Shown: in pieces, positions 3,590 through 26,713 of the stretch
Position numbering within the stretch: the first letter of the stretch is position 1
How the letters are laid out: each line of letters opens with the position of its first letter
Assembly (NCBI RefSeq): GCF_026210795.1
Contig: NC_089429.1
Span: forward strand, 1,426,001-1,490,000
DNA length: 64,000 nt
Source: Rhizophagus irregularis
Lineage: Eukaryota
Reading direction: 5' to 3'
Program-made: the position numbers and the translations under genes
The notes under the pieces: model-generated
Seen by the model: the letters and a program-made list of their open reading frames with translations, nothing else
Told to the model about the DNA's origin: nothing
Databases searched by the model: none

Positions 3590-4425
3590 TATTTATTCAT
3601 TTTTTAACGAAACATTTTTTAACGTTTCGAAATATTTTTTTTAAAAATTCTTTTAATCGGAATGTTGGCTAACGTTCTGATTATTTTTTTTATTTCATTT
3701 TTAATAGGAACGTTGAAAAACGTTCCGAAATATTAATTTTTTTTTAAATTCTTTTAATCGGAACGTTGGCTAACGTTCCGATTAATTTTTTTACTTCATT
3801 TTTAATCGGAAGCGTTGAAAACGTTCTGAAATATTGTTTTTTAAAAAATTCTTTAATCGGAACGTTGGCTAACGTTCTGATTTTTCATTAAAAATATTTT
3901 CGAAACGTTTTTTAACGTTTCGAAATATTTGTTTTATTTTTTTAATCGGAACGTTGTCTAACGTTCCGAAATATTTGTTTTTTCATTTTTTTAATCGGAA
4001 CGTTGCTAACGTTCCGATTTTTCATTAAAATTATTTTCGAAACATTTTTTAACGTTTCGAAATATTTGTTTTATTTTTTTTAATCGGAACGTTGGTTAAC
4101 GTTCCGATTTTTCATTTTTAACGAAACATTTTTTAACGTTTCAAAAATATTTTTTTTTCTTTTTTTTAATCAGAACGTTTTTAACGTTCGAAACAATTTT
4201 TTTTAATTTTTTTAATCGGAACGTTGGCGTTCCGATTATTTTTTTATTTTACTTTTTTAACGAAACGTTGAAAAACGTTTCATTTATTCTTTTTTTTAAC
4301 TTCTTTAATCGGAAGCGTTGTCTAACGTTCCGATTTTTTTATTTTTCATTTTTTTTAACGAAACGTTTTTTAACGTTTCGAAAATACATTTTTTTTTTAT
4401 TTTTCTTAATCGGAACGTTGGCTAA
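3590..4425 (+). repeat. Tandem array of short palindromes (atcggaacgttggctaacgttccgat alternating with cgaaacgtt...aacgtttcg)
   Basis: Directly visible. Resumes after 19468, and the mirror-image array is at about 37390-38330. Confidence 0.9.
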
Positions 4426-4931
4426 GTCGTTGGGCTGGTAGTGTGCCTCGCTACGCTCATCCCATTTCGGCCTCAACGGCCTCGCAGTACCTACATCACC
4501 CCTCCGTGGGGCAGGTTTACCTGCCACAGTACCATGGTCTGCCACAGTATTTTTCCACTTATTTTTTTTTCTACATTTTTTCTTATATATAACTTACTAT
4601 GACAACTATGGCAACTATGGCAGACTACTTAAAAACGGAATAAAAACGCGAATAAAGCCGAAATCAAACAGAATCTCCTGCCATAGTACCTGCCATAGTA
4701 CGAAAAATCTTATAATAATACTATGGCAGCCTTAGTCAGCCCCTCAGACCCCAAAACCCGATTCACGCTATGATTACCCTTTATATACTCACCTAGACCC
4801 TCCAAGTATGATTCCCTATGTCCTGAACTATGGCACCCGAACTATGGCAGCCGAACTATGGCACCCGAACTATGACCACTTACCCCCGTCAGAAAAAATA
4901 TATTCGGCAATTGAAGATTAGGTAACTATAA
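4426..4931 (+). repeat. Left terminal inverted repeat (506 bp)
   Basis: Reverse complement of 18948-19467, from gtcgttgggctggtagtgtgcc to gaagattaggtaactataa. Confidence 0.95.
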
Positions 4932-4959
4932 ATTAGTACTCGATTTGATAGAACAAAAA

Positions 4960-7436
4960 ATGGCCGCTCAAGTTCCAGCAATCTTTAACCCCAACAACCA
5001 TTTCTTCTACGATGACCTTCTTAAAAAATGTGTAGGTACACACACGAAAGAAAGCGTCAATTCAGCAATCTTGGCTTCTGTGGCTTTCATCACCACAAAA
5101 TCCGGCATGTGGATTAGAAAAAAGAAGGCTTACAATGGAAGCATATACTTCGAGTTCGCCGCAGATCTTAAGGGGATTTCTACTAAGCACAAGGTAATTA
5201 TTCGGTCAGATACCGGAGAAGACAGTGACGTGACCACATCCATCAAATTAAAGGATCTTCTTCTCCAAGCATCAATCGCAAAGATCTGTTATACAGATGT
5301 AAACTTCATGCCTTATCCCCAAATGCGCCAAAGTATAATCCTGAATTCTTCAATCTCTTCCTAGGTTTCAGGGCCCAACCCGCTAAGCGCATCAAACCAA
5401 ACCTAGTTAATCCAATCATCCGACACGTTCATGAGGTATGGTGTGCAGAGGACAAGCAATTAACTATATACATCCTCAACTGGCTCGCATTTCTAATTCA
5501 AAATCCAGACAAAAAACCCGGTACAGCAATTATCATGCGCAGTCCCCCCAGATGTGGTAAGAATATCTTAACCGATTTTATCGGAGAACGTATTCTCGGC
5601 CGTGAAAATTTCCTCTCCACTACTCGTCTTGAAGATGTAATGGGAAGGTTCAATGTGGCTGTTCGTGCCAAAAAACTTATCATCCTCAATGAATGCGATA
5701 TGTCAGGCAAGGAATGGCACGGGGCAAACAACTGACTCAAGAGTTTAATCACCGAGCCTTACATCTCTATTGAGGAAAAGGGGATAGATGTGAAGGTTAT
5801 TGATGACTTTGCTGGCTACATGATCCTCAGTAATCATGCTATGCCAATCCGCATAGAAATGGGAGATGAAAGATTTGTAGCTCTCAACGTCTCAGCCAAA
5901 TATAAGGGCAATAGAGAATACTTCGGTTCTCTCGTAAAAGTATTAGAAAATCCGGATACAGCCAGTTCCTTCATGTCCTATCTACTTAGCCGAGACTTAA
6001 CTGGCTTCAATCCCCGATCTATTCCTGATACTCAAATGAAATGGGAGTTAATTGAAGCAAGTATCCCGAATCCCCAGCGTTTTATACAATATTACCTTGA
6101 AATGATGTGGCCCGACAATTGCGACACACTTGAAATCCCGTGTACAAATTTCTATAGCACTTACCAGAATTGGTGCAGTGAGAAGGGTGAAAACAAAACA
6201 CTAAGTGACAATAAATTCGGTATGGAGATTAAACAATTTGCCCCTAAAATGCGTGTAAGCCGCTCAGGTACCTGAATAAACTATTACATACTAGATAAAG
6301 CAAAAATCGTGGAGAATTTTAGTAAAGTAATCCAAGATGTACAAGACGTACAGGAAGCACCAGTAGAGGGAGTAGAGTTAGTTGCCGAGAAACCCGCTGA
6401 GGAAAAACCCGCTGAGAAAAAACCCGAACCTGCTGAGGAAAAACCCACTGAGAAAAAACCCGAACCCGCTGAGGAAAAACCCGCTGAGAAAAAACCCGAA
6501 CCCGCTGAGGAAAAACCTGCACCTGTAATTCGCAAGACTCCTCCACCGCTTCCACCCAAGCCTGACCACTTAAAAGAACGTCCACAAGAGTTAAGAAAAG
6601 AACAACCAGATCCCGATGAAGATACTAATGAGTCAAACACCGATAAATCTATAGATAACTTCTCAGATTGTTATCTATCTGACGAGGAACCCGACCAAAA
6701 AGAATCTATCCCCGAGCCAGATAACTACGACGTTTTAGATGACTTGCTATCTGACTCAGATTTTACAACTGTGAACCCAGCTCCTGAACAACAACCCAAG
6801 TATCCCGCAGAATCTTCTGCATCTGTCACTAAGCCTGACCCAGAACCGGCTTCTGAAGAGCAATTTATCCCAGAACCCGACACAGAACCAGAAGTTGACC
6901 GGGATCCTGAACCAAAGGAAGGCACTCGAGCGCACTGGGCTTGGCAAGAAAGACACCGATGGGATCGCAAACCATGGGTTAAAAATTTAAAGGACCAGGT
7001 CTTCAATGATCTCTACAATACAGGTAAGGAATTATGGGCCAAGTACCAAGACGCGTCAGACGAATATGACTGGGAAATACTCGCGTTTGAAATAGAGGAA
7101 TGTCCCACAACGCGTATTGAGGACGAGTACCAGTACTACCTTATGGAGGTAGTAGACCGCTTCAAGGACTGGATTGAATATAATGGATACTTACCTAAAA
7201 TACCTAGCCGTAAAGAACTCGCAGATTTAATAAGAATATACAAGGAGAATCGTAATGCCGAGATTATTCCCATCCCCTCTGGTTATGAAACTATGAGGGC
7301 AGATAAAAGTAAAGCGCGAGAGATCCCCGAGGAATGTCCAAAAACTGATATGGAACGTGAATGGGAGGCCGCCAATGGAATCATTGATGACTGGGACGAA
7401 GAGGATACTGAGGGCGCTATCAACGACATATTGTAA
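4960..7436 (+). pseudogene. SF3 (D5/NrS-1-like) helicase with a long acidic, proline-rich C-terminal extension; disrupted
   Basis: ORFs 4945-5364, 5535-5735, 5790-6275 and 6309-7436 join into one reading frame with a 1-nt loss in the C-run near 5317-5320 and two in-frame TGA codons (5733, 6273). Motifs: FNLFLGF, LNWLAFLIQNPDKKPGTAIIM, Walker A SPPRCGKN, Walker B LIILNE, motif C MILSN, winged-helix-like FYSTYQNWC...KFG. Confidence 0.85.
6385..6520 (+). repeat. 36-nt coding tandem repeat (AEEKPAEKKPEP)
   Basis: gctgaggaaaaacccgctgagaaaaaacccgaacc repeated about 3.5 times. Confidence 0.9.
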
Positions 7437-7522
7437 GCGCTATTTGAGATTATTTCTTTTTTTTTTTTGTATATATATAGAAAGATATTATTTATAGTTG
7501 AAGACAAATCATATACATAAAA

Positions 7523-9376
7523 ATGCAATACTCAAGAATTGCCCACACTTTACCAACACGACCTGACATCAAGGAACTTCAGTATTCCGGTGCTCGCTTT
7601 TCCAGAGGAGCTATCGCCAGACTCGGTCAGACTCTCCAGACGCGATTTCCAGATAGAAAGTTCCAGATCCTACTTCCCTATGAAAACTGGAAACCCGGTG
7701 GATGGACATCAGGAAACCAACCAGCCAGCCTCTTTTCACTATTAGACCATTATGATGAAGCACAACTACCGGATGACGCAGACCCTGATTATTTTGAACG
7801 ATTCATAATTTATGCAAGAGATAGTCCACCGGCCACAGGAGGATGCAATGGGGAGCTAAATGATTGCCTGTATGAATGCCTAAAAAATATTTACGGCACA
7901 TTCTCTAAAATGCCAAAGTCAATCGAAAAGCCCGAGTATATCAAAAAGGCATTAAGTCTCAATCGCGATGCTCCCATCCCAGTTTCATGCATGGACAAGG
8001 TTGAACAACTCGCAGGAAGTCTCGCAATTAATATTGTGGGGGACATTACCCGAATCTCTAAGAGTAAGTCTGATAGACGTGCGACTCTCATCCTATCAGA
8101 AGGCCATTACTCCCTCACGTTAAATCCTGGAAGACTCCACCCCAGTAAAATAGATAGAAAGCGTAATTTACCCATTGTATACTATGAAGATGGGACCAAT
8201 AATGTAGTCACAATATACAACGGCAAAACAGTTAAGTCTTGCACAATTGCGCAGTTTCAAAAGACTAAGAATTCCAAGAGTTCTTTCATCCCCGTCGAGA
8301 AAAACTGTAAGACTGGAGTATATGAAACTCTTGAAGAAGCATATCAGAGAATCCACGAGGAGCGGGATGTCTTCTTACAAACTACAAAGAAGTTCAGTTT
8401 AGGAATCGACTTATCATACCATAACTGGTCTTACAAAAGAACGGCTCTCTGGTTATTCGAACGATTAAGTGTAGGGATTCCAGCCAATGATCCTCTTGAC
8501 CCGATAGAAGCAGAGTGGTTAAGTGATGCAATGATGGGAGGATTAATCTGGGCAGTTAACGAGTGGAAAGGCTATGGAAGACAGTACGATGCAACAAGTT
8601 TATACCCGAGTATCCAACAATCGAACGTGAACTTTCCAATCAGACAGGGTAAATTCCAGACACTTAATGACTTTGTTGACCACAGGGGTTATGCCTTGTA
8701 TGGATTATTCCATGCTAAGGTAAGTGGGAATAATATTCTCTTCCGACAGAATAAAAGGGGAATCTATACATTCATCGACTTACAACGAGCAAAAAAACTT
8801 GGTCTCAATATACAGTTAATACAGGATGGGAAGCCAAATGCATTGATATATGATAGAGAAGCGAGAATCCCTGGAACTGTAATATTCGGTGAGTATGTAC
8901 ACTTCCTCTTCAAAATTAAAAACCAGGGTGGCGTAGCTGGCCGCGTGGCAAAGCGAGTCCTCAACACATTATGGGGAGCATTATGCCAGAGGAAGCGTAA
9001 TTACAAGACACTCACCGCAGATCAAACAGACCCATTTACATTTCCAGAGGGCCATACACTCGACTCTATCATACCAGTAGGATCTGACCAGTGGCGATTC
9101 CAGTTCACAAACCCGGGTAATCCCTTCAAAGGTGAGTATCCCAGGATCGCCCCATTCTTATTAGCACGTGGTCGCAAAATCACATCTGAGGCAATTCAAC
9201 CATACAAGGATAAAGTACGACATATCCATACGGATGGATTTATTTTAGAAGAGCAGCCAGATAGCCCCGCGCTTTTCACTTGTTCAGAGAATGCAGATAC
9301 GACTCTAAAGACTTTCAAGTTTGAAACCGCGGGATACTGCCATGTGAAAAATGCGAACAAGGTTATCTGGACATGA
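7523..9376 (+). CDS. polB: Divergent family-B DNA polymerase (probably protein-primed type) with putative OTU-like N-terminal domain
   Basis: MMGG pre-motif, motif A YDATSLYPS, motif B KRVLNTLWGAL, motif C HIHTDG. N-terminal NDCLYECL...GHYS. Intact 617-aa ORF. Confidence 0.85.
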   Translation: MQYSRIAHTLPTRPDIKELQYSGARFSRGAIARLGQTLQTRFPDRKFQILLPYENWKPGGWTSGNQPASLFSLLDHYDEAQLPDDADPDYFERFIIYARDSPPATGGCNGELNDCLYECLKNIYGTFSKMPKSIEKPEYIKKALSLNRDAPIPVSCMDKVEQLAGSLAINIVGDITRISKSKSDRRATLILSEGHYSLTLNPGRLHPSKIDRKRNLPIVYYEDGTNNVVTIYNGKTVKSCTIAQFQKTKNSKSSFIPVEKNCKTGVYETLEEAYQRIHEERDVFLQTTKKFSLGIDLSYHNWSYKRTALWLFERLSVGIPANDPLDPIEAEWLSDAMMGGLIWAVNEWKGYGRQYDATSLYPSIQQSNVNFPIRQGKFQTLNDFVDHRGYALYGLFHAKVSGNNILFRQNKRGIYTFIDLQRAKKLGLNIQLIQDGKPNALIYDREARIPGTVIFGEYVHFLFKIKNQGGVAGRVAKRVLNTLWGALCQRKRNYKTLTADQTDPFTFPEGHTLDSIIPVGSDQWRFQFTNPGNPFKGEYPRIAPFLLARGRKITSEAIQPYKDKVRHIHTDGFILEEQPDSPALFTCSENADTTLKTFKFETAGYCHVKNANKVIWT

Positions 9377-9469
9377 TTGCTAAGAACTGGTAGGTTTATT
9401 TTTTACCGACATACCGTGATAGCATAATTGAATAAACCTATAGAACATGTAATCTTACAAGATACCCAA

Positions 9470-9964
9470 ATGCAAAACACCGACGGATTAGGTAGACAAG
9501 ACGATGAAAGTTTCCACACGTGGGCTAAGCGCATTCAGAATGCTGTGCAATATTATGAGACTTGTAGTAGAATAGGTTTTCATAGGCGGCTACCTTATCC
9601 AAGGTCTCGTCAAGCTGTATATGCTTATATTGTGCACATTAGGAGAATAGTATCACGACTACCAAATAGGTGGTACTGTACCTACTGTAAATCTTTTATT
9701 GATCGCGGATGGGGAGCCGATGCTTCCATGGATCAAGCGGTACGACTACATTTATATAGTTGCTCGAAGCATTTTAATTTCGACTATTATACTCATCATG
9801 CTGAAACGATCCAAAAAGCCTTTAGGAGATATATAGAAAGAAGGAACAATAAAGCGGCTAAGATTATCCAGAAAGTCGCTATCCCCTGGTTATATAGACC
9901 AGGCTCTCTATTGATACAAAAGGCTGAGCGACGCTTCTACTGTCTTGCAGTATCCCAAGTGTAA
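9470..9964 (+). CDS. Hypothetical protein with CxxC/His zinc-finger-like segment and two IQ-like motifs
   Basis: WYCTYCKSF...HLYSCSKH; AETIQKAFRRY and AAKIIQKVAIPW. First ATG at 9470, preceded by the element's upstream motif. Confidence 0.6.
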   Translation: MQNTDGLGRQDDESFHTWAKRIQNAVQYYETCSRIGFHRRLPYPRSRQAVYAYIVHIRRIVSRLPNRWYCTYCKSFIDRGWGADASMDQAVRLHLYSCSKHFNFDYYTHHAETIQKAFRRYIERRNNKAAKIIQKVAIPWLYRPGSLLIQKAERRFYCLAVSQV

Positions 9965-10045
9965 ACCCGAGGTTCATATTTATTTTTTCTCATTCGAATG
10001 AACAGGTAACTGAAGATTTATATTTTTTACAAAGTACAAAGAATC

Positions 10046-10516
10046 ATGTCAACATATACCGAATTCGCAAGCATTGTTAACAGCACTGACAGCACTAGTG
10101 AGGAGATTATTTACGAGGCATCGCGCATTCAGCCTAGTGTTATCACTGATGAAACTGTCCCCAAGATTATTCGCGCATTAAAAGATACTATAGTAGTCGC
10201 ATTAGTATCTGGGTTTAGCAAAACCAGTTACCTCGTCCAGGACCACGTGAAGTATATCAAGCGAATCCAGACGGCAAATTCTCCTGTATCATATGTGAAG
10301 TTCGTGGCCAGAAAACTCTTCCCAGATAATGCGGCATATACTGCTAAAATAGCAAAAATCTGCGAATCATACAAGAATAAACAAGCTCTCCTAGATAAGC
10401 TTGAGGCCCTCTTCGAATTGTATTATAATGCGACTAAGGACTCATCAACCGGTCCCCCAAAGCGAGCTATTACTAAAAACGAGGCTGAGAAAACCTTAAC
10501 AGAACTTCTTGCATAA
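10046..10516 (+). CDS. Hypothetical protein (156 aa)
   Basis: Intact ORF flanked by the element's upstream motif and a downstream T-tract. No domain recognised. Confidence 0.65.
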   Translation: MSTYTEFASIVNSTDSTSEEIIYEASRIQPSVITDETVPKIIRALKDTIVVALVSGFSKTSYLVQDHVKYIKRIQTANSPVSYVKFVARKLFPDNAAYTAKIAKICESYKNKQALLDKLEALFELYYNATKDSSTGPPKRAITKNEAEKTLTELLA

Positions 10517-10609
10517 GCGGCTCCTGTACGAATTTAGTTTATATTTTTTATCTATTTATAATGGGCATACAGTAATTGAAGATAGCTATAGTATAAGTAA
10601 CATAACATC

Positions 10610-10985
10610 ATGTTGGACCGATTACCAGTAGAAATAGTCGAACGCATTGTCGCAAAGATCCCGGATACTGACCTTATTGCAGTGAGTAAGGTAAATAAAG
10701 TGTGGTGGCAGGAAGTTCGTCAAGAGGCATATAAGAGGTGGAAAAATTATGCCACTACGATCGGGTATGTCCGAGCTCTTGGAAAGCCATTCAAAAAAGG
10801 GAATGTTGACTGGATAACACTTGAAGATGTAAACGACTTCTATAAAAGGCCTCACCAAGGATCAGCTTTATATTATGGAGAAAATGCTTAGGAATGGGAT
10901 GGTCGTGGACTTCCAAGAGAGGGAAACCATAGAGCATGCATTAAGTGAACATAGATGGGGAGGCGATCCTTGGGGAGTGGTATGA
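10610..10985 (+). pseudogene. F-box protein, frameshifted near 10850
   Basis: MLDRLPVEIVERIVAKIPDTDLIAVSKVNKVW fits the F-box consensus. Another frame continues LTKDQLYIMEKMLRNG...WGGDPWGVV* to 10985. Confidence 0.7.
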
Positions 10986-11339
10986 ATAAACTCAACAGGA
11001 GTAAGCATTTTGTACTTGACTTTCGTAAGAATTACCCTGCAGAGTCATATTTTTTAGATCCGGCCGGCATTACCGCGTAATCCCGAATTACCGAAAAAGG
11101 AAATTTATGTTACACAAGATTACAAACGCATTTTTACCAAAATCGATTTTTTGTGGAACTGGTATCGCCCAAAAAGGAAATGATCTACGTACCCGCATGA
11201 AGTCACATGACATCGAAATTATTAGATCGAGAGATCGTGTCCCGATCTCAAAGTTTAGCACTTTTTTTATACACTGTACTGTAAAAAATTCCACGGTTTT
11301 TCCATGAATGCATTTTAGGCCAATAATCCAATAACTTAT

Positions 11340-11430
11340 TCATCAGGTATCCTCGTGTTTCGCGACAAGGACTGATGACCATGTAACCTCATCATCAGGT
11401 ATCCTCGTGTTTCGTGACAAGGACTGATGA
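11340..11430. repeat. Two tandem hairpin units (period about 53 bp)
   Basis: tcatcaggtatcctcgtgtttcgYgacaaggactgatga occurs twice; each is self-complementary (tcatcag/ctgatga, tcct/agga). Confidence 0.8.
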
Positions 11431-11497
11431 CGATGTCACTTGGTTATTGTAAATTGAAGATAACAATTAGGTATGTAGACACGTACAGAAAAAAGCG

Positions 11498-12082
11498 ATG
11501 TCTTACACTTATATAACTAATCCTATAACCGGACGTCCAATCCGTGTTGGTGGAGATACCTTTAATCGAATAGTTATGGAATCCCATGATTATATCGATG
11601 GAAGGCTTGTCCGTAGACAAACCGCACCGCCTCCACCCCAAGAACAACCTGTATATTTAAATACAGATACAGGACGCTATATTCAACACGGTACTAGAAC
11701 GTATCATAGATTGGTTGAGAGTGACTACGAGGTAGTTGAGGACTACTACCTTGTTCATTCTGAAGAGGAGGAGCTTATAGAGGAAATCATCAATGAAACG
11801 CGCTATAATGAGGAAAATTTTGATGGCCAGCGGTTAACTTTTAATGATATACAACAAATCAGGGCCGCTATTCAGGCTGACCAAGATGAATATGATGATT
11901 TTATCTTACAGCAAGATACGACTAACGGGACACCTTCCTCTGGTCCTTCCGGTCATCTACGAACTTTGGAGGACCATGTCCCGAGACTTGCAGAGCTTAA
12001 TATTGAGTTGTGTAGGGAATGTCTCATGCCTGTGAACCCAAGTGACTTAACGGACAAGTTGTGCAAGGACTGCGCTTCCTAA
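11498..12082 (+). CDS. Protein with two NPxTGRxI-type repeats (2-cysteine-adaptor-like, typical of large DNA viruses) and a C-terminal CxxC...CxxC zinc ribbon
   Basis: ITNPITGRPIRVGGDTFNRI and YLNTDTGRYIQHGTRTYHRL; CRECLMP...LCKDCAS. Confidence 0.6.
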   Translation: MSYTYITNPITGRPIRVGGDTFNRIVMESHDYIDGRLVRRQTAPPPPQEQPVYLNTDTGRYIQHGTRTYHRLVESDYEVVEDYYLVHSEEEELIEEIINETRYNEENFDGQRLTFNDIQQIRAAIQADQDEYDDFILQQDTTNGTPSSGPSGHLRTLEDHVPRLAELNIELCRECLMPVNPSDLTDKLCKDCAS

Positions 12083-12234
12083 TGGTCAGTCCTCCGGTCC
12101 TCCGGTCTTTCCAACGGTCGATCCCTTAATGCCAGTTATTTTTTTTTATACAAATGACAGGTATTTAAAGATAACAATATATAAAAAAGATTGTAAAGGA
12201 TACTAAGTGAGCGAATAATCAAAGAAAGATAGCC

Positions 12235-12795
12235 ATGTCAACATCAATCGTAATAAACCAGTGTCAGAACTGTGGAGTATTCTCTGCAAAAGCGGCATAT
12301 AGAGGATTATCCAGCGTGTTGTATAGACAGATTATAAAGAAGATTGGTGACGAGAGTGAACCTTTACAAGCCTTGGGACTTGCCAGGGATAAGTTGGTCC
12401 AGATTATTTGTCGGGCAAGTAATGCGGATTTTACGCAATTATTCACACAAAGACTGGATATGAAAATTATGGACGGAGATTCATACGAGGATACTAGGAA
12501 GTGGCTTCTTGAACAGCTTATAGCCATTGGATGTGACAGTGGGGAAATTACCTTATATCAGTTCTTACGAAATACATACCCGGATGGTATTGACGAACCC
12601 TTTACTACATTCTATGAGAACTATGTAAGTCATATAAGTAATCCGATGACTAAGAACTTTGCTTCTCGAGCCTTAGGAGCTATTGGGTTAAAAGCTAGGA
12701 TGTTACGGATTGACTTTGAAGGACATAAAAAAAGCGCCATGATTCTTAGGGCTTCTGCGGAAGAACTTCGCGAGATTCTTACAAAATACTATTGA
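12235..12795 (+). CDS. Hypothetical protein (N-terminal CxxC, possible C-terminal winged helix)
   Basis: Intact 186-aa ORF whose 3' end overlaps the convergent ATPase gene by 17 nt. Confidence 0.6.
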   Translation: MSTSIVINQCQNCGVFSAKAAYRGLSSVLYRQIIKKIGDESEPLQALGLARDKLVQIICRASNADFTQLFTQRLDMKIMDGDSYEDTRKWLLEQLIAIGCDSGEITLYQFLRNTYPDGIDEPFTTFYENYVSHISNPMTKNFASRALGAIGLKARMLRIDFEGHKKSAMILRASAEELREILTKYY

Positions 12796-14002
12796 TCCCT
12801 ACTCGTAATGCTCGACGGTCCATGTGGCCCTTAGAAAAGATCTGTAAAAGGACCCCGATGCCTTCTATTATTTTTTTATTATCCAAAGGGTGACTAGACT
12901 TCAGGGTTTCATACCGGGAGAATAACTCCTTTACGGTCTCAGGTTTTGGAATTTCAGTCTTCGCGGTCCTATCCCGTACTTTTGCTAAGAATTTTTGGAA
13001 GTCTGATCCCAGGGTCTTACCAGATAGTCCGTAGGCTTCCCGAAAGACGTACTTAATCCAGGTATCTGCATTCTTAGCTATAACACCAGATACGAGAAGG
13101 TGTTTTCTCTCTTTAGGCGATGGATATTCCTGAGCAAACTCGATTAGCTGGGAGGACTTTTTTGCTTCAGCTACGGCTTTCTGGCCATAAGGACTAAACT
13201 TCGATCGAACTGGGTTCAAACTCGGATTGAACGGGGATCGAACTGGGTTCAAACTCGGATTGAACGGGGATTGAACTGAGATTAAACTAGGATCGAACTG
13301 AGATTGATCGGTGATCGAACTGAGACTAGTATCCCATCTAACCCGAATAGATAACGGATCGCTCTTGGATCTTCTAAGATCAAATACTATAAATTCGCGT
13401 TGTAGAGTAAGGTCATCGATTACTGGAGCTAGTGACTCCGATTCTTCTGTATACTGGCGGATGATCCTCTTAGTATCGGTCAAACTTCCGTGACCTCCAT
13501 GTAGGGAAATATAATTCACATTTTCACGAATAGCCTTAGGAATGGTAAAAAATCTTTGGGCTACATAAATACACGAGATATTTTTGTGACGCCCGTGTGT
13601 AAAAAATCCAGTGATGAGATCCTGGGTTTTTTTAGGCGCATCCATCAAATCCTCAAAGATTACCACAGTAGCCTGGGTGGAGTTGAAGTCCTTAACATTT
13701 GGAATCTCACTATGGGATACTGCGGTAAACGGAATTTCTTCTTCTTTGAAAAAATCACGTACGACTGCCCACTTCGGTTCATCGAGGTATCTGCCAACTA
13801 GAATTACCGCATCACATAATATGTACCTTTCGCCATCCTCCTTTGCCTTCTTGTCTCCCATTAACAAATTAATGATCATAGTTGTCTTACCCGAGTCAGA
13901 ACTTCCTGCTACGGCAAGACGGAAAGGCCATGATGGGGCAAACTCATTACCCTGTCTCGAGTCGGTCGTGTACTCGTCCAAATTGTATACATAAAGATCC
14001 AT
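12779..14002 (-). CDS. A32-like (FtsK/HerA superfamily) genome-packaging ATPase with C-terminal extension
   Basis: PFRLAVAGSSDSGKTT (Walker A), VVIFEDLM (Walker B), FFTHGRHKNISCIYVAQRFFTIPKAIREN (signature of A32/Polinton ATPases). 33-nt repeat encoding SPFNPSLNPVR at about 13200-13330. Confidence 0.92.
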   Translation of the reverse strand: MDLYVYNLDEYTTDSRQGNEFAPSWPFRLAVAGSSDSGKTTMIINLLMGDKKAKEDGERYILCDAVILVGRYLDEPKWAVVRDFFKEEEIPFTAVSHSEIPNVKDFNSTQATVVIFEDLMDAPKKTQDLITGFFTHGRHKNISCIYVAQRFFTIPKAIRENVNYISLHGGHGSLTDTKRIIRQYTEESESLAPVIDDLTLQREFIVFDLRRSKSDPLSIRVRWDTSLSSITDQSQFDPSLISVQSPFNPSLNPVRSPFNPSLNPVRSKFSPYGQKAVAEAKKSSQLIEFAQEYPSPKERKHLLVSGVIAKNADTWIKYVFREAYGLSGKTLGSDFQKFLAKVRDRTAKTEIPKPETVKELFSRYETLKSSHPLDNKKIIEGIGVLLQIFSKGHMDRRALRVGINSIL

Positions 14003-14030
14003 TTGAATTTTATTCTAATTTAGTTTAAAT

Positions 14031-14738
14031 ATGATGTCGACACCAATTGCAATTTATACTCCTTCAGAGCCTACTGGACCGCCTCCTAGGGATTTGCGTG
14101 ATATGAATAATATACCATTAGTTGCGGTAATTAAGGATCTAACAGATTTTTTAACTGTCAGTGATCGCATGGTTGTTAATCGAGATGTACAAAATGCAAA
14201 CCATCATCTTAAACATGCTCTTAATTTATTAATTCATCGCTGTAGAGAAACATACGAAGAACGCGATATATTAAAAGCGGAACGCGATCGATCTCGAAAA
14301 GAACGTGATGAATTACAAGACGAACTCGAGGTTCAAACAGGTTTGTTAGGTCTTACACAAGATGAGCTAAATATCGTACAAGATACTATTACTGGTTTAG
14401 AAGCTAATTTGGCTGAATTGGAACGTGAGTTTGGTGGTATGCGGACGACTAATCATCGTCTTCAGCAGCAATATAATCTTATGAGAGGAGAACGTAATAG
14501 AGCTATAGGTGAACGTAATAGAGCTATAGGCGAGCGTGATGTGTCACGAAATCGGCTTGTATATGCCAATAATCGGGTTCTTTTTGGAATTTGGACATTG
14601 GGACGTCTTAGGAATCGACTTTTCCAACAAATAGCCACTCTGCGTATCCAAGTACAATGGTTTCGGATTAGACAATTGAACCCTCCTCCACCTCCTCTCA
14701 ACCATCCACAAAATACGATATGGCTGCCGTTGGTATAG
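14031..14738 (+). CDS. Coiled-coil protein, probably the N-terminal part of the Gag-like ORF
   Basis: Heptad-rich, with GERNRAI repeats. One extra A in the A-run near 14710-14713 would fuse it to 14720-16222 (...NHPQKYDMAAV...). Confidence 0.65.
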   Translation: MMSTPIAIYTPSEPTGPPPRDLRDMNNIPLVAVIKDLTDFLTVSDRMVVNRDVQNANHHLKHALNLLIHRCRETYEERDILKAERDRSRKERDELQDELEVQTGLLGLTQDELNIVQDTITGLEANLAELEREFGGMRTTNHRLQQQYNLMRGERNRAIGERNRAIGERDVSRNRLVYANNRVLFGIWTLGRLRNRLFQQIATLRIQVQWFRIRQLNPPPPPLNHPQNTIWLPLV

Positions 14739-16222
14739 CTGCCCCTATATTTTATGGTCGGGAAGATGAAGATCTTAATCTTTTTATTGATAACTTTTTA
14801 GGGTATATTAATACTGTTGGTATTGATCCATTGGACGATGCCGGTGCACCTCCGGGTCAGGTGCGAGCGATGGGGGTTCTTCGTAGCTGTATGAGAGATG
14901 AAGTGGCGAGGTGGTTTGATGCAGAACTTACTGGAAAAAATTGGGAACTCTCGAATATTCGGTTAGTAGCTACTGCAAATGGTGGAGCCAGTGCTACTCG
15001 CCGAGCATTCAGAGCTTTGGTTGTTCCTGAAAATGCTGGTGCTGGACGACTACATCTTAATATTTATGTGCCTGGATCTGCTGCTCATGCATATTCTCTA
15101 GTTGCGGCTAATGCGGCGGTAACTATTGGAGACGCATTTTTCCCGTCACGCGCTGATATCGTTAGAACGAATTTTAAAGTTGAAGAGCAGTGGAGGCGTG
15201 CGGGCGGACGTCCTACTCATCTACCCGTTAATGGGTTGGGAGATCATGGAGGTCCATTCAATGCTGCTGCCCAGAATCAACCGATAGTCTTACAGGGGAT
15301 TCTCCTGGATCAAGCATTTATGCATATGCGCACAAATTTTCCAACCGTCGTGGAAGAAAGACTTCAAATACGATTTAGTAACCTTTACCAGGAACAAGGT
15401 GAACCTGTTCGATCTTACTACAAGCGAGTTGAGAGGGCTGGGGATATTGTAGGATATAATCGAATTATGGTTACTGACCAGTTCTATAGAGGACTTTTGC
15501 CGGAAAACGTTATTGAAGCTTCCAGAATCGGGGCGGCACCTCTTAATACATTAATCGATAGATTGAGTGATCTTGAGCGACGAAAGGGTGAAATGTTCTA
15601 TGGATTACAAAGGCGTCAGGGTATTGAAAAGGCTAAAAAAGAGGAATTGGCTGGCTATACTCATCCCGTGACTCCACACCAAGGTGCTGTAATACAAAGG
15701 TCGACTGACGTTATTACTCAAGAACGATTACAAGAATTGCTCAAGGCACAAGCCGAGGAACTTACCAAGAATTTCCAGGCACAATTTAAACAATTACAAG
15801 CATCTAAGCCAGTTCGTAAACCACCGGTCTATAGACAACAGATTAAACCTGTTCGGCAAAAGCCACGGCCACGCGTTGTTCAGGATCATCAGGATCCTGA
15901 TTGGGATGATGGTTATGTAGATCATGATTTTGGTGATGACCCTGGTGACCCTGATGCTCCTGAGTGGACTAGTGAGGATGATCAACATGTTATTGATCTT
16001 ATTATGGGATATGAGACGTCTAAAAGATTTCCAAAGAGACTTCAGAAGGCTAAAGATAGACGCGATGATCTGGAATTAGCCCGAGCAATGAGAAACCTTG
16101 ATCTTAATGATGATGCTATGGATATTGATACTAATACCGCGAGTTTTGATGACTTGAAAATTGTTCCCGATGAGGAAGGTGGTTTTCGGATTTGTGCGGT
16201 TCGAAGTACAAAAAAAAAGTAA
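14720..16222 (+). CDS. gag: Ty3/Gypsy-like Gag capsid protein without zinc knuckle
   Basis: PIFYGREDEDLNLFIDNF, LRSCMRDEVARWF and LYQEQGEPVRSYYKRV...DQFYRGLLP align by eye with the genuine Gypsy Gag in this window (PLFYGKEDEDVNDWVRQF, HLRGAAAQWY, TRQEVNESVEEYTRRF...DHYIEGLEP). C-terminal AMDID motif. Confidence 0.8.
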   Translation: MAAVGIAAPIFYGREDEDLNLFIDNFLGYINTVGIDPLDDAGAPPGQVRAMGVLRSCMRDEVARWFDAELTGKNWELSNIRLVATANGGASATRRAFRALVVPENAGAGRLHLNIYVPGSAAHAYSLVAANAAVTIGDAFFPSRADIVRTNFKVEEQWRRAGGRPTHLPVNGLGDHGGPFNAAAQNQPIVLQGILLDQAFMHMRTNFPTVVEERLQIRFSNLYQEQGEPVRSYYKRVERAGDIVGYNRIMVTDQFYRGLLPENVIEASRIGAAPLNTLIDRLSDLERRKGEMFYGLQRRQGIEKAKKEELAGYTHPVTPHQGAVIQRSTDVITQERLQELLKAQAEELTKNFQAQFKQLQASKPVRKPPVYRQQIKPVRQKPRPRVVQDHQDPDWDDGYVDHDFGDDPGDPDAPEWTSEDDQHVIDLIMGYETSKRFPKRLQKAKDRRDDLELARAMRNLDLNDDAMDIDTNTASFDDLKIVPDEEGGFRICAVRSTKKK

Positions 16223-16941
16223 ACTCAGATAAGGGTGTAAGTATCTCGAAACTTCTTAAATCTGTTCCAAAAAAATCAGTTAAAATGACTCCTATTAAGA
16301 TTCCTGTGAAGATTACTAGTAGTAAGCCCACACTTATAAAAGCCGTCACCAAAAATGATTCATTAAGTTTATTAAGGTCTGCAGATTTTAGAAAATTACT
16401 CCGTGAGATTCTTCGGGAAGAATTAAAGTCTGCTCGTAAAAGTACGGAGATTCTGGAAGACCTAGTTGAGGAAAAACAAGAAGAGGATATCAGGGAAGAT
16501 GACCCGATGGATATTGACATAGCTCGTTTGGAGAATACTAAAGATCTTTTAGCGCTGGATGGGAAGGTCAATGGGATAGCAATTCAGTGTTTAGCAGACA
16601 CTTGTGCTAACGCGTCTTTTATTCAGAGGGAAGCCGCTGAAGAATTAGGGTTGAATATCGACAAGAGTATTACACATAACATATCCGGCGCTCCGGGTTC
16701 TGGTAGGACATTCGGCATGGTAAAAGGTGTGTCAATCAAACTAACCCCTGATTGTGTAATCACTGAGAATCTCGCGGTTTTAAGCGATTACAAGCATAGG
16801 GAGATTGGATTGAGCCGGACGTGTCTGAAACGTTACAATTATGATGTCCATGAATCACGTGAACATATCGCCCTTACTTGTAATGAGAAGAATGTTTTTA
16901 TCCCGATAGTTTCTGACGTGAATCGAGGAGACAAAAAATAG
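16192..16941 (+). CDS. Retropepsin-like aspartic protease in the -1 frame relative to Gag
   Basis: GKVNGIAIQCLADTCANASFIQREAAEELGL (DTG replaced by DTC), flap-like ISGAPG. No ATG at the ORF start; overlaps the Gag end at an A9 run just before the TAA. Confidence 0.75.
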   Translation: MCGSKYKKKVNSDKGVSISKLLKSVPKKSVKMTPIKIPVKITSSKPTLIKAVTKNDSLSLLRSADFRKLLREILREELKSARKSTEILEDLVEEKQEEDIREDDPMDIDIARLENTKDLLALDGKVNGIAIQCLADTCANASFIQREAAEELGLNIDKSITHNISGAPGSGRTFGMVKGVSIKLTPDCVITENLAVLSDYKHREIGLSRTCLKRYNYDVHESREHIALTCNEKNVFIPIVSDVNRGDKK

Positions 16942-16955
16942 GGAATATTTATTTT

Positions 16956-18047
16956 TTATTCCCAAAATTTGCGAATTAAATCGGGAACATCCTCCTCCAA
17001 CCGGTCAGCGGGTTCCTAAGTGGCTTCGGTATCTGGGTATCGTTCCCACTTGATTAGATACTGGTCTTGACCCTTCCTGATGCGATGCCGGAGTATCCGC
17101 TCAGATACAAATCTTTCAGGTTGCCCTCTTATCACGGAATCAGGTGGGGGATATTCATTTTCTGGAACAATCTGCAACTCTTTTCGGGTGTACGCACATC
17201 TGGATACACCTAGTCGCCCATGTGGTCCATCAAGAAGATATGTAGGAGGTTGTTCGGGTGAGAGTATCATTTTTTTGATGACACGGATATTGGGATTCCA
17301 TCTTATGTCTCCTGTACGAAATTTTCCATGAAGTTTATTACCGAGTACTGAGATAGGTTCATCTAACTTTACTCGGACTCGCATTCCTTCAGAGAGAAGT
17401 TCCGTCTTTTTTGACACCTTGGGTGACCCAGTCGGAATGTCTGGAGGATTTCTTTGCCAGATTTCATCTATTTTACTAACCACATCATGGAAATCTTCTG
17501 ACCATTCCACGGATGTCACCCCAGTCTTCAACTCCTGTGCCACCATTCGTTTTAGGAGAGGTTCCTGGATTGCTTGGATGGCTCGTTCAGCGTATGATTG
17601 CTGTTTGTGTCTTCCTGGTTCGCCGAACCTCATCATCACCCCTAGGCTGTTCAGGAAAAAATCACGTACCTGATCATTGGTGAATTCTGATCCGGAGTCT
17701 GTCTCTATTCGATGTGTTGGTGGCTTAATGCGATTTCTTCTGTAGATTTTAACAAATCCATTGAGAACCTTATTTGCGGTTTTATCCTTTAGGGGCTCTG
17801 CATCGACTCGTTTACCCGTGACTTCTACCACTACGAGGAAATAGTGAAATCCTTTGGGGTCGACTGGCATCTCTGCGAGATCTGCCTGATGCGTCGCATT
17901 TGGTTTCCATACAACTACTCGTGGACGCTCTGATGACTTCTCCTTTAGGGGCTTTTTGTATAGGTTGTAGTGCTCCTCACCTTTTAGAATTCGTGCTGGT
18001 ACTCCAGAGAGATTGTAGTATTTGTAATAATTCTCTAAATGCGACAT
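16956..18047 (-). pseudogene. Retroviral-type DDE integrase with C-terminal chromodomain; one premature TAG inside the chromodomain
   Basis: HQADLAEM (D), IETDSGSEF (D), SYAERAIQ (E). Chromodomain FVSERILRHR...YLIKWERYPDTEAT*EPADRLEEDVPDLIRKFWE*, where TAG at 17016-17018 replaces the conserved W. ATG at 18047. Confidence 0.9.
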
Positions 18048-18091
18048 ATTACGACAAATTAAAGGAAAGATTTTGGACTTCAAATCTTAAG

Positions 18092-18412
18092 ATGACACGA
18101 TTTTACTGCCTAAAGTGTAAGAAGGAAACCGAAACTGCTAGTGAAATACAAGATATGACCACAAATGGGCGTTACCGGCTGCATGGTGATTGCACAGTTT
18201 GTGGTATGCATAAGAATACTTTTACTGGGATAGACTGGGTTATCAAAAAGAAAACCAAGGAGAAGAAAAAAGAAACTGCGGCTAAAAGACATCAGACGGC
18301 GTACAATCGGCAATGCAAAAAACTCGGGCAGAAAATCTTAGATTCTGATGACACGTGTAAGCAGTGTATTGATAAATGCTTTAAGGAGGCAAAAAAGAGG
18401 AAGACGGATTAG
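18092..18412 (+). CDS. Small basic zinc-ribbon protein (YCLKCK...NGR...GxCxVCG, DUF5679-like)
   Basis: MTRFYCLKCKKET...TTNGRYRLHGDCTVCGMHK followed by a Lys-rich tail. Confidence 0.7.
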   Translation: MTRFYCLKCKKETETASEIQDMTTNGRYRLHGDCTVCGMHKNTFTGIDWVIKKKTKEKKKETAAKRHQTAYNRQCKKLGQKILDSDDTCKQCIDKCFKEAKKRKTD

Positions 18413-18421
18413 TACCGCCTT

Positions 18422-18937
18422 CTAAAAGTATTCCTCATCATCTGAGTCATCGAGAGATACCTCTCCATCATCTGATTCATCATCCGAGTCGTCAGGAGTG
18501 TGACCTTCCTTAAGCAATTGGATGTTGTACGTTATTTGAGTCCATTTCTCCCAGTCGGACTCTTGCGTTATAAAGCCGCATCTGAGGAGTGCTCTTTCTA
18601 TTACTACCATCCCTGCAAACCTGGTGTATTTTTTCTGATCGGCTTCATTGAAATTGTCAATGGCTTCCTTGTAGTAGTCTACTGCCTGTTTGTATACCTC
18701 TTCGGCTTCTTTATGCCGCTTCTACAACTCAGCTTTACAACAGTTATACCAGAGTCTGTTAATCTTGAGATGTTTTCCGAATTCTTTAACCGGAAGGTTT
18801 CTGACCATCTCTGCTACTATGTCCGGGTCATTGAGGGGTGATGCCCGAATTTGGATCCATTTACGGATTCCATAGATGTCTACAAGATCAAGCCCGAGGT
18901 CTTCGGCAAGAGAAGTGGCGGCGTGTAAGTTTATCAT
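18422..18937 (-). pseudogene. Second F-box-like protein with acidic tail and one internal TAG
   Basis: ORFs 18722-18937 and 18422-18610 are in the same frame with an open 37-codon linker. PLNDPDIVAEMVRNLPVKEFGKHLKINRLW is F-box-like. Confidence 0.6.
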
Positions 18938-18947
18938 TGTATGTTAC

Positions 18948-19467
18948 TTATAGTTACCTAATCTTCAATTGCCGAATATATTTTTTCTGACGGGGGTAAG
19001 TGGTCATAGTTCGGGTGCCATAGTTCGACTGCCATAGTTCGGCTGCCATAGTTCGGGTGCCATAGTTCAGGACATAGGGAATCATACTTGGAGGGTCTAG
19101 GTGAGTATATAAAGGGTAATCATAGCGTGAATCGGGTTTTGGGGTCTGAGAGGCTGACTAAGGCTGCCATAGTATTATTATAAGATTTTTCGTACTATGG
19201 CAGGTACTATGGCAGGAGATTCTGTTTGATTTCGGCTTTATTCGCGTTTTTATTCCATTTTTAAGTAGTCTGCCATAGTTGCCATAGTTGTCATAGTAAG
19301 TTATATATAAGAAAAAATGTAGAAAAAAAAATAAGTGGAAAAATACCGTGGCAGACCATGGTACTGTGGCAGGTAAACCTGCCCCACGGAGGGGTGATGT
19401 AGGTACTGCAAGGCCGTTGAGGCCGAGGTGGGATGAGCATAGCGAGGCACACTACCAGCCCGATGAC
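18948..19467 (-). repeat. Right terminal inverted repeat (520 bp)
   Basis: Matches the left TIR apart from a few substitutions and one extra 14-bp gaactatggcaNNc unit. Confidence 0.95.
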
Positions 19468-19599
19468 GCTAACGTTCCGATTTTTTTTGTATTTCATTTT
19501 TAACGAAACGTTTTTTAACGTTTCGAAACTTTTTTTTTTGATTTTTTCTTTAATCGGAACGTTGGCTAACGTTCCGATTTTTTTTTATTACATTTTTTA

Positions 19600-20800
19600 A
19601 TGAAACGCTTATTAACGTTTCGTAATTTTTTTTCATTTTTTTTTCCTTTCTTCTTTTAGGTCAGCGGGTGGGCTTCCGAGTTCCGAAGAACGGAAAACCA
19701 AGATTCGTAAGATAAGTACGAATCTTGGTTTAATTTTTTTTTCTTTTTTTTTAATATTATTAATGAACGGTTACTAATAACCGTTCTTTTCTTTTTTAGG
19801 TTTCGGGCAGCTTCCTGGTTCCGAAGAACGGAAAAGAACCAAGATTCGTAAGTATATACGAATCTTGGTTTTGTTTTTTTTTTGTTTTTTTTTTAAAAAA
19901 ATATTATGAACGGTTACTAATAACCGTTCTTTACTTCTATTTTTTAGGTTTCGGGCGGCTTCCTGGTTCCGAAGAACGGAAAAGAACCAAGATTCGTAAG
20001 TATATACGAATCTTGGTTTTGTTTTTTTTATTTTTTTTTTTTAATATTATGAACGGTTACTAATAACCGTTCCTTTCTTTTTTATAGGTTCGGGTGGACT
20101 TCGGACAAACGGGAGAACCAAGATTCGTAAGTACGAGTACAAATTTTGGTTTTTGTTTTTTTTTTAATATTTTGGAACGGTTTACTAACCGTTCCTTTCT
20201 TTTTTCTTTTATAGGTTCAGGTGGGCTTCCCAAGAACGGAAAAACCCAAAGATTCGTAAGAATCTTTATTTTTTTTCTTTCTTTGTTTATTATTATGAAC
20301 GGTTTACTAACCGTTCTTTCTTTTTTCTTTTATAGGTTCGGGTGGGCTTCCCAAGAACGGAAAACCCAAAGATTCGTAAGGTATGGTACGAATCTTAACT
20401 TTTTTTATTTTTTTATTATTAAGAACGGTTAACTAACCGTTCTTGTATTTTTTTTTATAGGTTCGGGTGGGCTTCCGAAGAACGGAAAACCCAAAGAATC
20501 AGTAAGTTTTGAATAAAACACGTTTTTTATTTTTATTTTTTTTATTTTTTTTTAATTTTCTCTTTTCTTTTTGTAGGTATCGATTCTTTCGGCTTTGGGA
20601 CTTGGATATGCCGATATGGTAAGTTTCGATATTCGAAACTTACATTTTTTTAATTATTTTTTTTAATTTTATTCTTTAAGAAACGTTCTAACTGAACGTT
20701 TCTCTTTTTTTGTAGGCCTAGATTTTCTTTTCGGCGCTCTGGATTTTTCTTTTGTAGGTCAGCTTGATGGTTATTTCGACCCTTGAGCGAATGAATAATG
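19600..20800 (+). repeat. Micro-exon array with hairpin-embedded splice signals (CATCAG copy 1)
   Basis: Repeats of ttttag|gttcgggtgggcttcc..gaacggaaaa..ccaagattc|gtaag...acgaatcttgg, each followed by gaacggttactaataaccgttc and a T-tract. Confidence 0.8.
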
Positions 20801-26695: not shown

Positions 26696-26697
26696 TA

Positions 26698-26713
26698 TGG
26701 TGCATGCTCTGAG
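26698..26713 (+). promoter_or_regulatory. Primer-binding-site-like sequence
   Basis: TGGTGCATGCTCTGAG begins 2 nt after the 5' LTR. Cognate tRNA not identified. Confidence 0.6.

Follow-up and report, generated by a model that had tools for sequence, protein, structure and literature searches.

Large virus lineages are defined by the fold of their capsid protein, with the double jelly roll as the usual partner of the A32 ATPase. A Polinton/Maverick of Rhizophagus, at 4426–19467 (15,042 bp) of the window (the whole 64,000-nt stretch analysed), carries such an ATPase beside Gag-like and retropepsin reading frames, which raises the question of what shell, if any, this ATPase serves.

Anatomy of the element and the undetected jelly-roll genes

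The features of the element are as follows (window position, strand, description).

4421–4425: left target-site duplication (TSD), 5 bp GCTAA, inside an AT-rich repeat array (families D5/D6/D8)
4426–4931, +: left terminal inverted repeat (TIR), 497/506 aligned bases identical to right arm
4960–7436, +: D5-like superfamily 3 helicase, broken, with long acidic C-terminal extension (Pox_D5, E 9e-6; DUF5906, E 2.5e-6 and 1.4e-5)
7523–9376, +: protein-primed-type family B polymerase (pPolB), 617 aa (DNA_pol_B_2, E 3.6e-6, residues 353–503)
9470–9964, +: accessory ORF, 164 aa (weak IQ-motif match, below cut-off)
10046–10516, +: accessory ORF, 156 aa (no assignment by Pfam)
10610–10891, +: F-box ORF, 93 aa, probably truncated (F-box, E 2e-4)
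11498–12082, +: accessory ORF, 194 aa (weak 2-cysteine-adaptor match, 2C_adapt, E 9e-4, below cut-off)
12235–12795, +: accessory ORF, 186 aa (D5 C-terminal winged helix as a lead only, Atlas score 0.89)
12779–14002, −: A32/FtsK-HerA-type packaging ATPase, intact, with conserved extra C-terminal domain (Pox_A32, E 1.3e-10)
14031–14738, +: coiled-coil ORF in matrix-like position (Pfam matches coiled-coil only)
14720–16222, +: Gag ORF, 500 aa, with predicted two-lobed retroviral-type capsid (CA) domain (predicted structure; Atlas 0.94, Retrotrans_gag)
16174–16941, +: retropepsin frame, −1 to Gag (Asp_protease_2, E 5e-8)
16210–16218, +: nine-A run just 5' of the Gag stop, candidate −1 frameshift site (from sequence)
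16956–18047, −: rve integrase with C-terminal chromodomain (domains 17016–18047; rve, E 2.9e-9; Chromo, E 6.6e-8)
17933–18412, +: DUF5679 zinc-ribbon ORF (E 1e-17)
18422–18943, −: broken accessory ORF in two pieces, 99 and 73 aa (weak MIT match, E 0.012)
18948–19467, −: right TIR, 497/506 identical to left arm
19468–19472: right TSD, GCTAA, the same 5 bp as on the left

With a pPolB, an rve integrase, long TIRs, a short TSD and a length of 10–20 kb, the element agrees with the transposon definition of Polintons/Mavericks, and its A32-like packaging ATPase, recognized by Pox_A32 and by homologue motifs, with that of Polintoviricetes. Pfam, the TIR identity and the GCTAA on both sides confirm the original prediction of a 15-kb element bounded by TIRs and TSDs and encoding PolB, an SF3 helicase, a chromo-integrase and an A32-like ATPase. 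The pPolB, rve-chromo integrase, A32 ATPase and long TIRs are shared with Polintoviricetes, adintoviruses and Mavirus-type elements, and a pPolB in which no exonuclease was detected, together with a separate S3H, resembles the arrangement in mavirus as given in excerpts of 10.1101/2024.03.18.585575. By our reading, the Cys/His motifs of PolB near residues ~115 and ~196 resemble a vOTU domain; PDB sequence searches returned no relative of PolB or of CA. Judged from its sequence, this copy is not autonomous, because its helicase gene has one frameshift and two stops and its integrase a premature stop within the chromodomain.

Unlike Polintoviricetes, which have a double-jelly-roll MCP, penton and adenain, the element has a predicted retroviral-type CA and an aspartic protease instead. 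Neither Pfam nor comparison with the MCP-like ORF of a control element (L004) detected a double-jelly-roll MCP among its ORFs; the largest globular ORF without assignment, the acidic helicase tail aside, has 194 aa, and the MCP-like and penton-like ORFs of L004 have 490 and 256 aa. No single-jelly-roll penton was matched by Pfam or L004 (the 156–194-aa ORFs being judged by sequence alone), no adenain-like cysteine protease by Peptidase_C5 or the L004 protease, and the small ORFs include no evident portal protein; the ATPase alone among the L004 proteins compared matches the element (1/4). The original prediction had likewise recognized neither jelly-roll capsid nor adenain, and had seen no LTR, RT or RNase H around gag; a repeat and Pfam scan found none of these three within 4426–19467.

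L004 was the one inspected of six loci retrieved by scanning viral contigs with the ATPase alignment, and is an ordinary jelly-roll-type element. No close relative turned up when viral contigs were scanned with the ATPase, with PolB or with the Gag alignment, and a prokaryote scan gave a single weak match of 35 residues. L003 was rejected as a spurious match on a phage-like, GC-rich contig.

The Gag module and its predicted fold

The Gag module stood as regards its predicted CA fold, but not as the Gag-like ORF plus retropepsin ORF first described: it comprises three reading frames (coiled coil, Gag, protease) with a −1 shift at each junction. The coiled-coil ORF overlaps the Gag start by 19 nt, identically in L001 and L002. 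The module lies head-to-head with the ATPase across a 28-nt gap (14002 to 14031), and its protease frame ends at 16941, 14 nt from the convergent integrase stop (16956–16958), both distances being as first reported.

Because the Gag ORF has no Pfam match, its assignment needed structure. The model (pLDDT 85.6) has a two-lobed CA at residues ~5–290, whose N-lobe is interrupted by an insertion of ~120 aa (residues 73–192). In structure comparison (VIA) the top 36 rows, all of one fold family, were retroviral, Ty3, copia or Arc capsids matching both lobes, the N-lobe resembling Ty3 NTD (Z 6.4, rmsd 3.1, 74/74) and Arc 7r1z (Z 8.1, rmsd 2.0) and the C-lobe MLV CTD (Z 9.8, rmsd 1.9), with Z-scores (maximum 10.1) below the value under which the tool urges caution with helical proteins. 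Foldseek gave no match to the model at E ≤ 0.001, and Retrotrans_gag is matched by 24 of 69 Gag family members. The element's Gag is predicted from this model to have the retroviral CA fold, the Ty3/Arc type that had been expected for 14720–16222.

An MHR-like Gln is kept in 53/54 Gags, and both CA lobes and the frameshift-like end are kept across 30–45% identity. Among close copies the insertion diverges faster than the core (83.5% vs. 95–96%), as expected of a surface domain. Values of dN/dS of 0.27 and 0.34 indicate purifying selection on Gag; that of the coiled-coil ORF is 0.34. After CA, Gag has basic, proline-rich stretches, no zinc knuckle and a C-terminal KKK, and lysine-run ends occur in 11 of the 14 complete members of its lineage. 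No frameshift-stimulating RNA fold was found downstream of the A-run (fold z +1.1 and +0.8). Introns placed by public gene models at the Gag-protease junction vary between copies (at least 20 variants) and are taken here for errors of gene prediction caused by the frame shifts; splicing at the junction may be the other reading, and in four runs guessed to be RNA a splice joint was seen at neither of the two junctions, which is uninformative either way.

The protease keeps its catalytic Asp, with DTG changed to DTC and the second Gly motif reading LS; atypical motifs recur in 106/106 matches, and an Entrophospora relative reads DSC. Since these motifs stray from consensus, maturation may be atypical or absent. 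The module shares with Gag-protease of Ty3/gypsy elements (Metaviridae) and with Arc, PNMA and PEG10 a two-lobed CA, an MHR-like motif and a gag stop with a −1-frame protease, but differs in its ~120-aa N-lobe insertion, split-off coiled coil and DTC protease, in the absence of RT, RNase H, LTR and zinc knuckle, and in sitting in a DNA-replicating element.

Linkage, lineage and described relatives

Among 120 ATPase homologues, Walker A is present in 105, Walker B in 112 and GRH in 111; dN/dS of the ATPase gene is 0.06 over 89 codons. The order ATPase/coiled coil/Gag is retained in an 89.6%-identical contig (L002), and one gene model (P0062) joins all three; CAB4422005.1 and CAB4422007.1 were counted as further linkage, and one contig of a ~82%-identical subfamily joins protease to integrase. 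At the level of contigs and gene models, these data establish Gag-ATPase linkage in close relatives. In distant ones it is suggested by coincident contig sizes for one Gag cluster: among contigs below 300 kb, 8 of 22 Gag-bearing sizes recur among 19 ATPase-bearing ones, and ENA contigs of 11,574 and 12,670 nt are listed both for a 32%-identical Gag and for a 55%-identical ATPase, each separated from the protein of the window by the deepest split that is well supported. From these matching sizes we infer that both genes lie on the same two contigs. For 15 other lineage-A Gag clusters, most of whose contigs are too short to carry Gag and ATPase, no same-size contig was found among the best 120 of 234 ATPases.

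All complete members of the window Gag's lineage start at the CA Met (14/14) and none has a CCHC (0/14), which is present in 7/12 of a sister set whose knuckle-bearing Gags include GBC46968.2, CAB4418762.1 and CAG8605871.1; the split between the two has support 99/97, and placing the window Gag with the knuckle-bearing set was rejected (p 0.024, in a test picked after seeing the tree). Loss of the zinc knuckle in this lineage is evident from these sequences. No RT, RNase H or LTR was found in gene models of 122 Gag relatives. A fungal retrotransposon is the likely source from which coiled coil, Gag and protease were acquired in the distant past; the direction of this transfer, into the Polinton, is inferred, because the resident Ty3 Gag as outgroup left the root unfixed (57/98).

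The original statement that no such system had been described was too strong. Table S1 of PMC4028283 gives Polinton-1_GI, P_Gi1.1 and P_Gi1.2 without MCP, penton or cysteine protease, P_Gi1.2 with an ATPase and one tabulated Glomus Polinton without; excerpts of PMC7805220 also describe Glomus Polintons without MCP, their capsid being lost or not yet found. By tabulated features these elements resemble ours in host genus and in lacking the same three genes, but are 11–12 kb against 15 kb, with no Gag mentioned there; their recent expansion in R. irregularis (as Glomerales Mavericks) is noted in parts of PMC8647823 and PMC11952901. The Fig. 5 legend of PMC8502044 (Starrett et al. 2021) mentions retroviral Gag and retropepsin similarity ('Matrix/Capsid/NC/Pro ... 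S3H') and a D5-like S3H among PolB elements, and its Fig. 3 legend names Rhizophagus as exemplar; going by the legend, the Polinton-like element of Fig. 5 is probably this family. 'Gag' occurs once in the text, in that legend, and section 3.4 there holds no test of fold, conservation or mechanism. Bidnaviruses offer a precedent in which a Polinton-derived pPolB is joined to an unrelated capsid, but theirs is a parvovirus-type capsid with ssDNA, without integrase or retroviral fold.

A possible Gag shell and its alternatives

We put at about 0.5 the probability that Gag replaced the jelly-roll shell and acts as the element's capsid, with the A32 ATPase, which has been retained, loading it with linear DNA. 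For the chimera first proposed speak the anatomy, the predicted CA fold, the absent jelly-roll and adenain genes and the gag-ATPase link, while packaging of DNA by a Gag shell and the ATPase is its conjectural part. The three observations named at the outset as fatal to it (most other copies without gag-pro or with a jelly roll, near-identity to a resident LTR element, no CA fold) were not made.

Under this proposal, copying of the excised element by pPolB and helicase would start at its ends, Gag translation would begin at its own conserved Met, and a minority of ribosomes would slip at the A-run to yield Gag-protease. CA would build a shell and, the knuckle that selects RNA having been lost, the ATPase would pump DNA into it; within the coenocytic mycelium the particle would ferry DNA and integrase from nucleus to nucleus, and the chromo-integrase would insert the element with a 5-bp duplication. 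This copy would depend on helpers in trans. Counting against a motor-filled shell, we know of no portal or ATPase docking site in CA lattices.

Slightly short of even odds is the wider proposal that Glomeromycotina host an old dsDNA virus lineage combining Varidnaviria-type pPolB/A32 with an Ortervirales-type CA lattice that bears a surface domain and is motor-filled with 15 kb of linear DNA. If true, it would supply the capsid that Glomus Polintons seem to lack, and a CA capsid loaded by a motor would be seen for the first time. Keeping the motor while exchanging the shell for retroviral CA would bridge two virus realms within a single genome and pose the question of how a DNA pump can be fitted to a CA lattice; a CA shell able to contain 15 kb of DNA with no reverse transcription would also have structural and vector interest. 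The element offers, in a model mycorrhizal fungus, a direct test of the capsid that PMC7805220 treats as not yet found.

Unlikely, though best placed among the alternatives, is a Gag shell that co-assembles, retrotransposon-like, around the element's DNA-integrase complex (or RNA), with the ATPase working elsewhere, e.g. on the transport or resolution of replicated DNA. Every solved CA-fold capsid in the structural match list comes from a co-assembling retroelement, Gag retains basic, proline-rich stretches after CA, and the small ORFs show no evident portal; however, the knuckle is absent from 14/14 lineage members, and the ATPase, head-to-head with Gag at 28 nt, persists in its motifs under strong purifying selection with no other capsid to serve.

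We consider it decidedly unlikely that the element is a capsid-less transposon whose gag-pro is old, selected cargo with a non-structural job, e.g. poisoning the capsids of competing LTR retrotransposons. Such cargo would leave the retained packaging ATPase unexplained, and the CA lobes, MHR-like Gln (53/54) and frameshift-like end kept over 30–45% identity, and the fast, surface-domain-like variation of the insertion, argue against it; yet the protease motifs are atypical, the coiled coil is separated from CA, there are CA proteins domesticated as restriction factors (Drt2 is among the structural matches), and capsid loss in Glomus Polintons is the reading of earlier authors in the excerpts cited. 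That a helper virus or another Polinton supplies a jelly-roll capsid in trans, the ATPase being kept for genome selection and Gag being secondary, is improbable: distant ATPase relatives (L004) work with jelly-roll modules and the capsid-less transpovirons use helper viruses, but the tables and excerpts cited report no MCP for Glomus/Rhizophagus Polintons, and the long-term Gag-ATPase linkage would go unexplained. That the module is a recently and passively captured piece of a resident LTR retrotransposon is highly improbable and already largely refuted, for although donors are at hand, the same window holding a Ty3-type element that has a long N-terminal Gag, a stop and a protease, the window Gag aligns with the resident Gag over 29 residues only, the two proteases do not align by BLASTP, no close Gag relative has RT, Gag dN/dS is about 0.3, and its lineage is deep and distinct, union with the knuckle-bearing set being rejected by the post hoc test (p 0.024).

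Anatomy of the element and state of the copy

The Polinton at 4426-19467 (15,042 bp) has terminal inverted repeats (TIRs) identical at 497 of 506 aligned bases, a 5-bp duplication on both flanks, a GC content of 39-46% against mostly 24-35% outside it in the window, and an AT-rich repeat array as its site. Arrays of short AACGTT-centred palindromic repeats between A/T runs lie at 3575-4425, 19468-20456, 24135-25563 and 37367-38297; the Polinton sits inside one and an LTR element is flanked by others, a common setting that suggests a shared target preference. Its genes are as follows.

4960-7436, D5 helicase pieces (Pfam)
7523-9376, PolB (Pfam)
12779-14002, minus strand, A32 ATPase (Pfam)
14031-14738, coiled-coil ORF, first frame of the Gag block
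14720-16222, Gag ORF, frame -1 to the coiled-coil ORF
16174-16941, protease frame, -1 to Gag
16285-16941, retropepsin (Pfam)
from 18047, minus strand, rve integrase with chromodomain (Pfam)
within the element, DUF5679 and F-box ORFs (Pfam)

The original prediction had named PolB, ATPase, chromo-integrase and helicase as core genes; Pfam bears out the first three and finds the helicase as D5 pieces. The copy is young, judged by its TIRs, and defective, since one frameshift and two stops interrupt the helicase gene and a premature stop cuts the chromodomain of the integrase gene. The predicted spacing was confirmed at both ends, the Gag block lying 28 nt from the ATPase start and 14 nt from the integrase stop, and the predicted Gag-retropepsin module is present but spread over three frames, with the coiled-coil ORF separate. 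R. irregularis proteins match the ATPase domain at 100% identity, which together with the species name on the listed Gag homologues identifies the host.

Predicted capsid fold and Gag lineage

The Gag ORF itself has no Pfam match; Retrotrans_gag is matched by 24 of 69 aligned family members, and the ESM Atlas groups Gag residues 1-310 with Retrotrans_gag clusters (score 0.94). An AlphaFold2 model built from the 69-member family alignment (mean pLDDT 85.6) was compared with the PDB by Foldseek, where all 35 matches listed were CA-type (two-lobed retroviral-type capsid), none reaching E 0.001, the PEG10 C-lobe giving TM 0.73-0.76 by target (rmsd 2.1-2.2); in a viral structure library Foldseek also ranked Gag first. 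As anticipated for 14720-16222, the predicted model adopts a Ty3/Arc CA fold: against 48,161 PDB representatives, rows 1-36, at Z 10.1 to 5.8, contained nothing but capsids of retroviral, Ty3, Ty1/copia, Arc or PNMA type and spanned both lobes, the first unrelated row having Z 5.1. An N-lobe insertion (residues 73-192), common to all relatives, is more variable than the core (83.5% versus 95.4% and 96.2% identity among eight close copies).

An exhaustive search gave 146 Gag relatives, and 26 of 142 new ones have a full CA at ≥380 aa. Fourteen of these start exactly at the CA Met and lack a CCHC zinc knuckle, 11 of them sharing the lysine-run end of the window's Gag, where a run of nine A's just ahead of the stop encodes it; in the other 12 the coiled coil is fused in frame (10/12) and a knuckle occurs in 7/12. 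These groups were drawn after the sequences had been seen, two Met-start proteins being put in the second by eye, and the Gag tree separates the two sets at 99/97 support (19 versus 12 rows, root not fixed). An Entrophospora candida member of the knuckle-free set likewise has Cys in place of the active-site Gly. The second set may well be the retrotransposon source. The chimera of Polinton and Gag is real and under selection, and apparently old.

Pairing of Gag and ATPase in relatives

Metagenome contig L002, 89.6% identical, has the gene order of the element from ATPase through coiled coil to Gag and an unchanged overlap; a second related contig, L001, keeps the coiled-coil/Gag overlap with a coiled coil of a different subfamily. 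Gag gives dN/dS values of 0.27 over 215 codons and 0.34 over 283 codons, the coiled coil 0.34 and the ATPase 0.06. L001:1-613 is a recombinant junction, joining the coiled-coil ORF of a second Rhizophagus subfamily to the window subfamily's Gag; the two subfamilies have near-identical Gag tails and proteases, yet CA domains ~45% identical. Four runs, from three organism codes and one rhizosphere sample, supply contigs over 30, 30, 30 and 29 of 30 bins. No joint among the 15 shown, of 61, cuts out the Gag block, and on one contig at about 82% identity the protease is joined to the integrase.

All 120 Gag homologues listed (of 186) are named Rhizophagus irregularis; their gene models cover Gag in 120, protease in 105 and coiled coil in 71, one continues into the antisense frame of the ATPase gene, and RT is absent from all. 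A search of longer proteins gave two matches, both coiled coil-Gag-protease, a blank on RT that carries little weight. One 37.8-kb contig encodes both CAB4422005.1 (ATPase) and CAB4422007.1 (Gag), and 8 of 22 Gag-bearing contigs <300 kb equal in size one of 19 ATPase-bearing contigs, a lower bound with one contig shown per cluster. The strongest sign comes from a Gag cluster at 32% and an ATPase cluster at 55% identity to the window's: ENA contigs of 11,574 and 12,670 nt are listed for each of the two, and we infer them to be the same contigs. In its own subtree, each of these proteins is separated from its counterpart in the window by the deepest split with good support. Fifteen other lineage clusters gave no size match among 120 listed of 234 ATPases, most being on contigs too short for both genes. 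Linkage of Gag to the ATPase is kept in close relatives and, if the equal lengths mean shared contigs, would extend to distant ones.

Proposed packaging, prior descriptions and neighbouring elements

Our best reading, to which we give a probability of roughly 0.5, is that a Gag shell took over from the jelly-roll shell and that the ATPase would fill it with element DNA. In its favour, ATPase motifs are kept without another capsid to serve (Walker A, Walker B and GRH in 105, 112 and 111 of 120 homologues) and the Gag lineage dropped its RNA-selecting motif. A ~170-aa ATPase C-terminal domain (13300-12779, minus strand), after a Ser/Gln/Pro repeat linker, recurs throughout the aligned family and is a candidate adaptor for the putative Gag capsid; L004, a control jelly-roll-type element found with the window's ATPase, has an ATPase of 230 aa that lacks this domain. 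With a lumen of ~40 nm for a Ty3-size shell, 15 kb would fill ~0.5 of it, a density for which phages depend on a motor. Because the fungus is coenocytic, a particle of this kind might take the element from one nucleus to another and never leave the mycelium. The proposed packaging mechanism is directly testable.

Against the reading of an ATPase-filled Gag shell stand the protease, with both glycine motifs altered and DTC in 106/106 matches among 122 proteins, the A-run before the Gag stop (a candidate -1 frameshift site), behind which no RNA fold was found, and CA lattices, for which no portal is known. Co-assembly of a Gag shell without the ATPase motor is a rival reading, but appears unlikely. 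Gag as non-structural cargo is somewhat less probable again. A helper capsid supplied in trans seems improbable. The element has, at sequence level, no recognised jelly-roll shell: its unassigned ORFs are of 93-194 aa, plus an acidic helicase tail of 386 aa, whereas in L004 the positions of major capsid (MCP), penton and adenain are taken by ORFs of 490, 256 and 137 aa, the first two labelled by our own reading and the protease by Pfam (E 0.004). The ATPase was the one protein among the four from L004 to match the element. The predicted absence of any jelly roll stands for the MCP, on ORF size and this comparison; the small ORFs were judged by sequence, and a divergent penton might still be among them. 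L004:1-15944 is a Polinton-like virus contig that also encodes a 1075-aa fibre-like protein. Passive capture of part of a resident retrotransposon, which the original prediction had set as a refuter, is largely excluded, the window's Ty3-type element being only distantly related to the element Gag (29 aligned residues).

The element belongs to the Polintons as transposons, is not a member of Polintoviricetes by capsid and is not an LTR retrotransposon. The claim that no such system had been described needs amending: a figure has probably shown this gene set already, since legends in Starrett et al. 2021 (PMC8502044; preprint 10.1101/697771) give a Rhizophagus exemplar (Fig. 3) and Gag/retropepsin similarity (Fig. 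5), likely the family of this element. The fold test, Gag lineage and deep Gag-ATPase link are not in print as far as our searches reach; no discussion of a Gag capsid in a Polinton was found in the literature covered, subscription journals being mostly outside its scope. Elsewhere, Glomus Polintons are scored without MCP, penton or protease, one with ATPase (Krupovic 2014, PMC4028283), G. intraradices has no MCP yet known (Bellas and Sommaruga 2021, PMC7805220), Rhizophagus A32 ATPases are noted without the word Gag (2026 preprint 10.64898/2026.06.19.733378), Mavericks are reported to be expanded in Glomerales (PMC11952901, PMC8647823), and a pPolB domain layout and bidnavirus precedent are described (10.1101/2024.03.18.585575); passages of PMC5751038, PMC4409740, PMC11296320, PMC11075540 and 10.1101/2025.06.16.659975 hold nothing on Gag.

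In the Ty3-type LTR retrotransposon (25613-37378, LTRs ~1.1 kb), the Gag ORF is 1015 aa long and opens with an acidic/cysteine-rich extension of ~650 residues. A stop separates Gag from the protease, and an ORF resembling a deoxynucleoside kinase (34213-34704, dNK E 0.007) lies after RNase H and before the integrase. A second TIR-bounded element (46100-63088, arms ~1.2 kb at 98-100%) contains a broken Transposase_21-like gene (47290-49602, minus strand), a LINE-type RT (57701-61895, minus strand) and a third, inverted copy of the Ty3-type LTR (55248-56370, 88-94% to the other two), probably a solo LTR.
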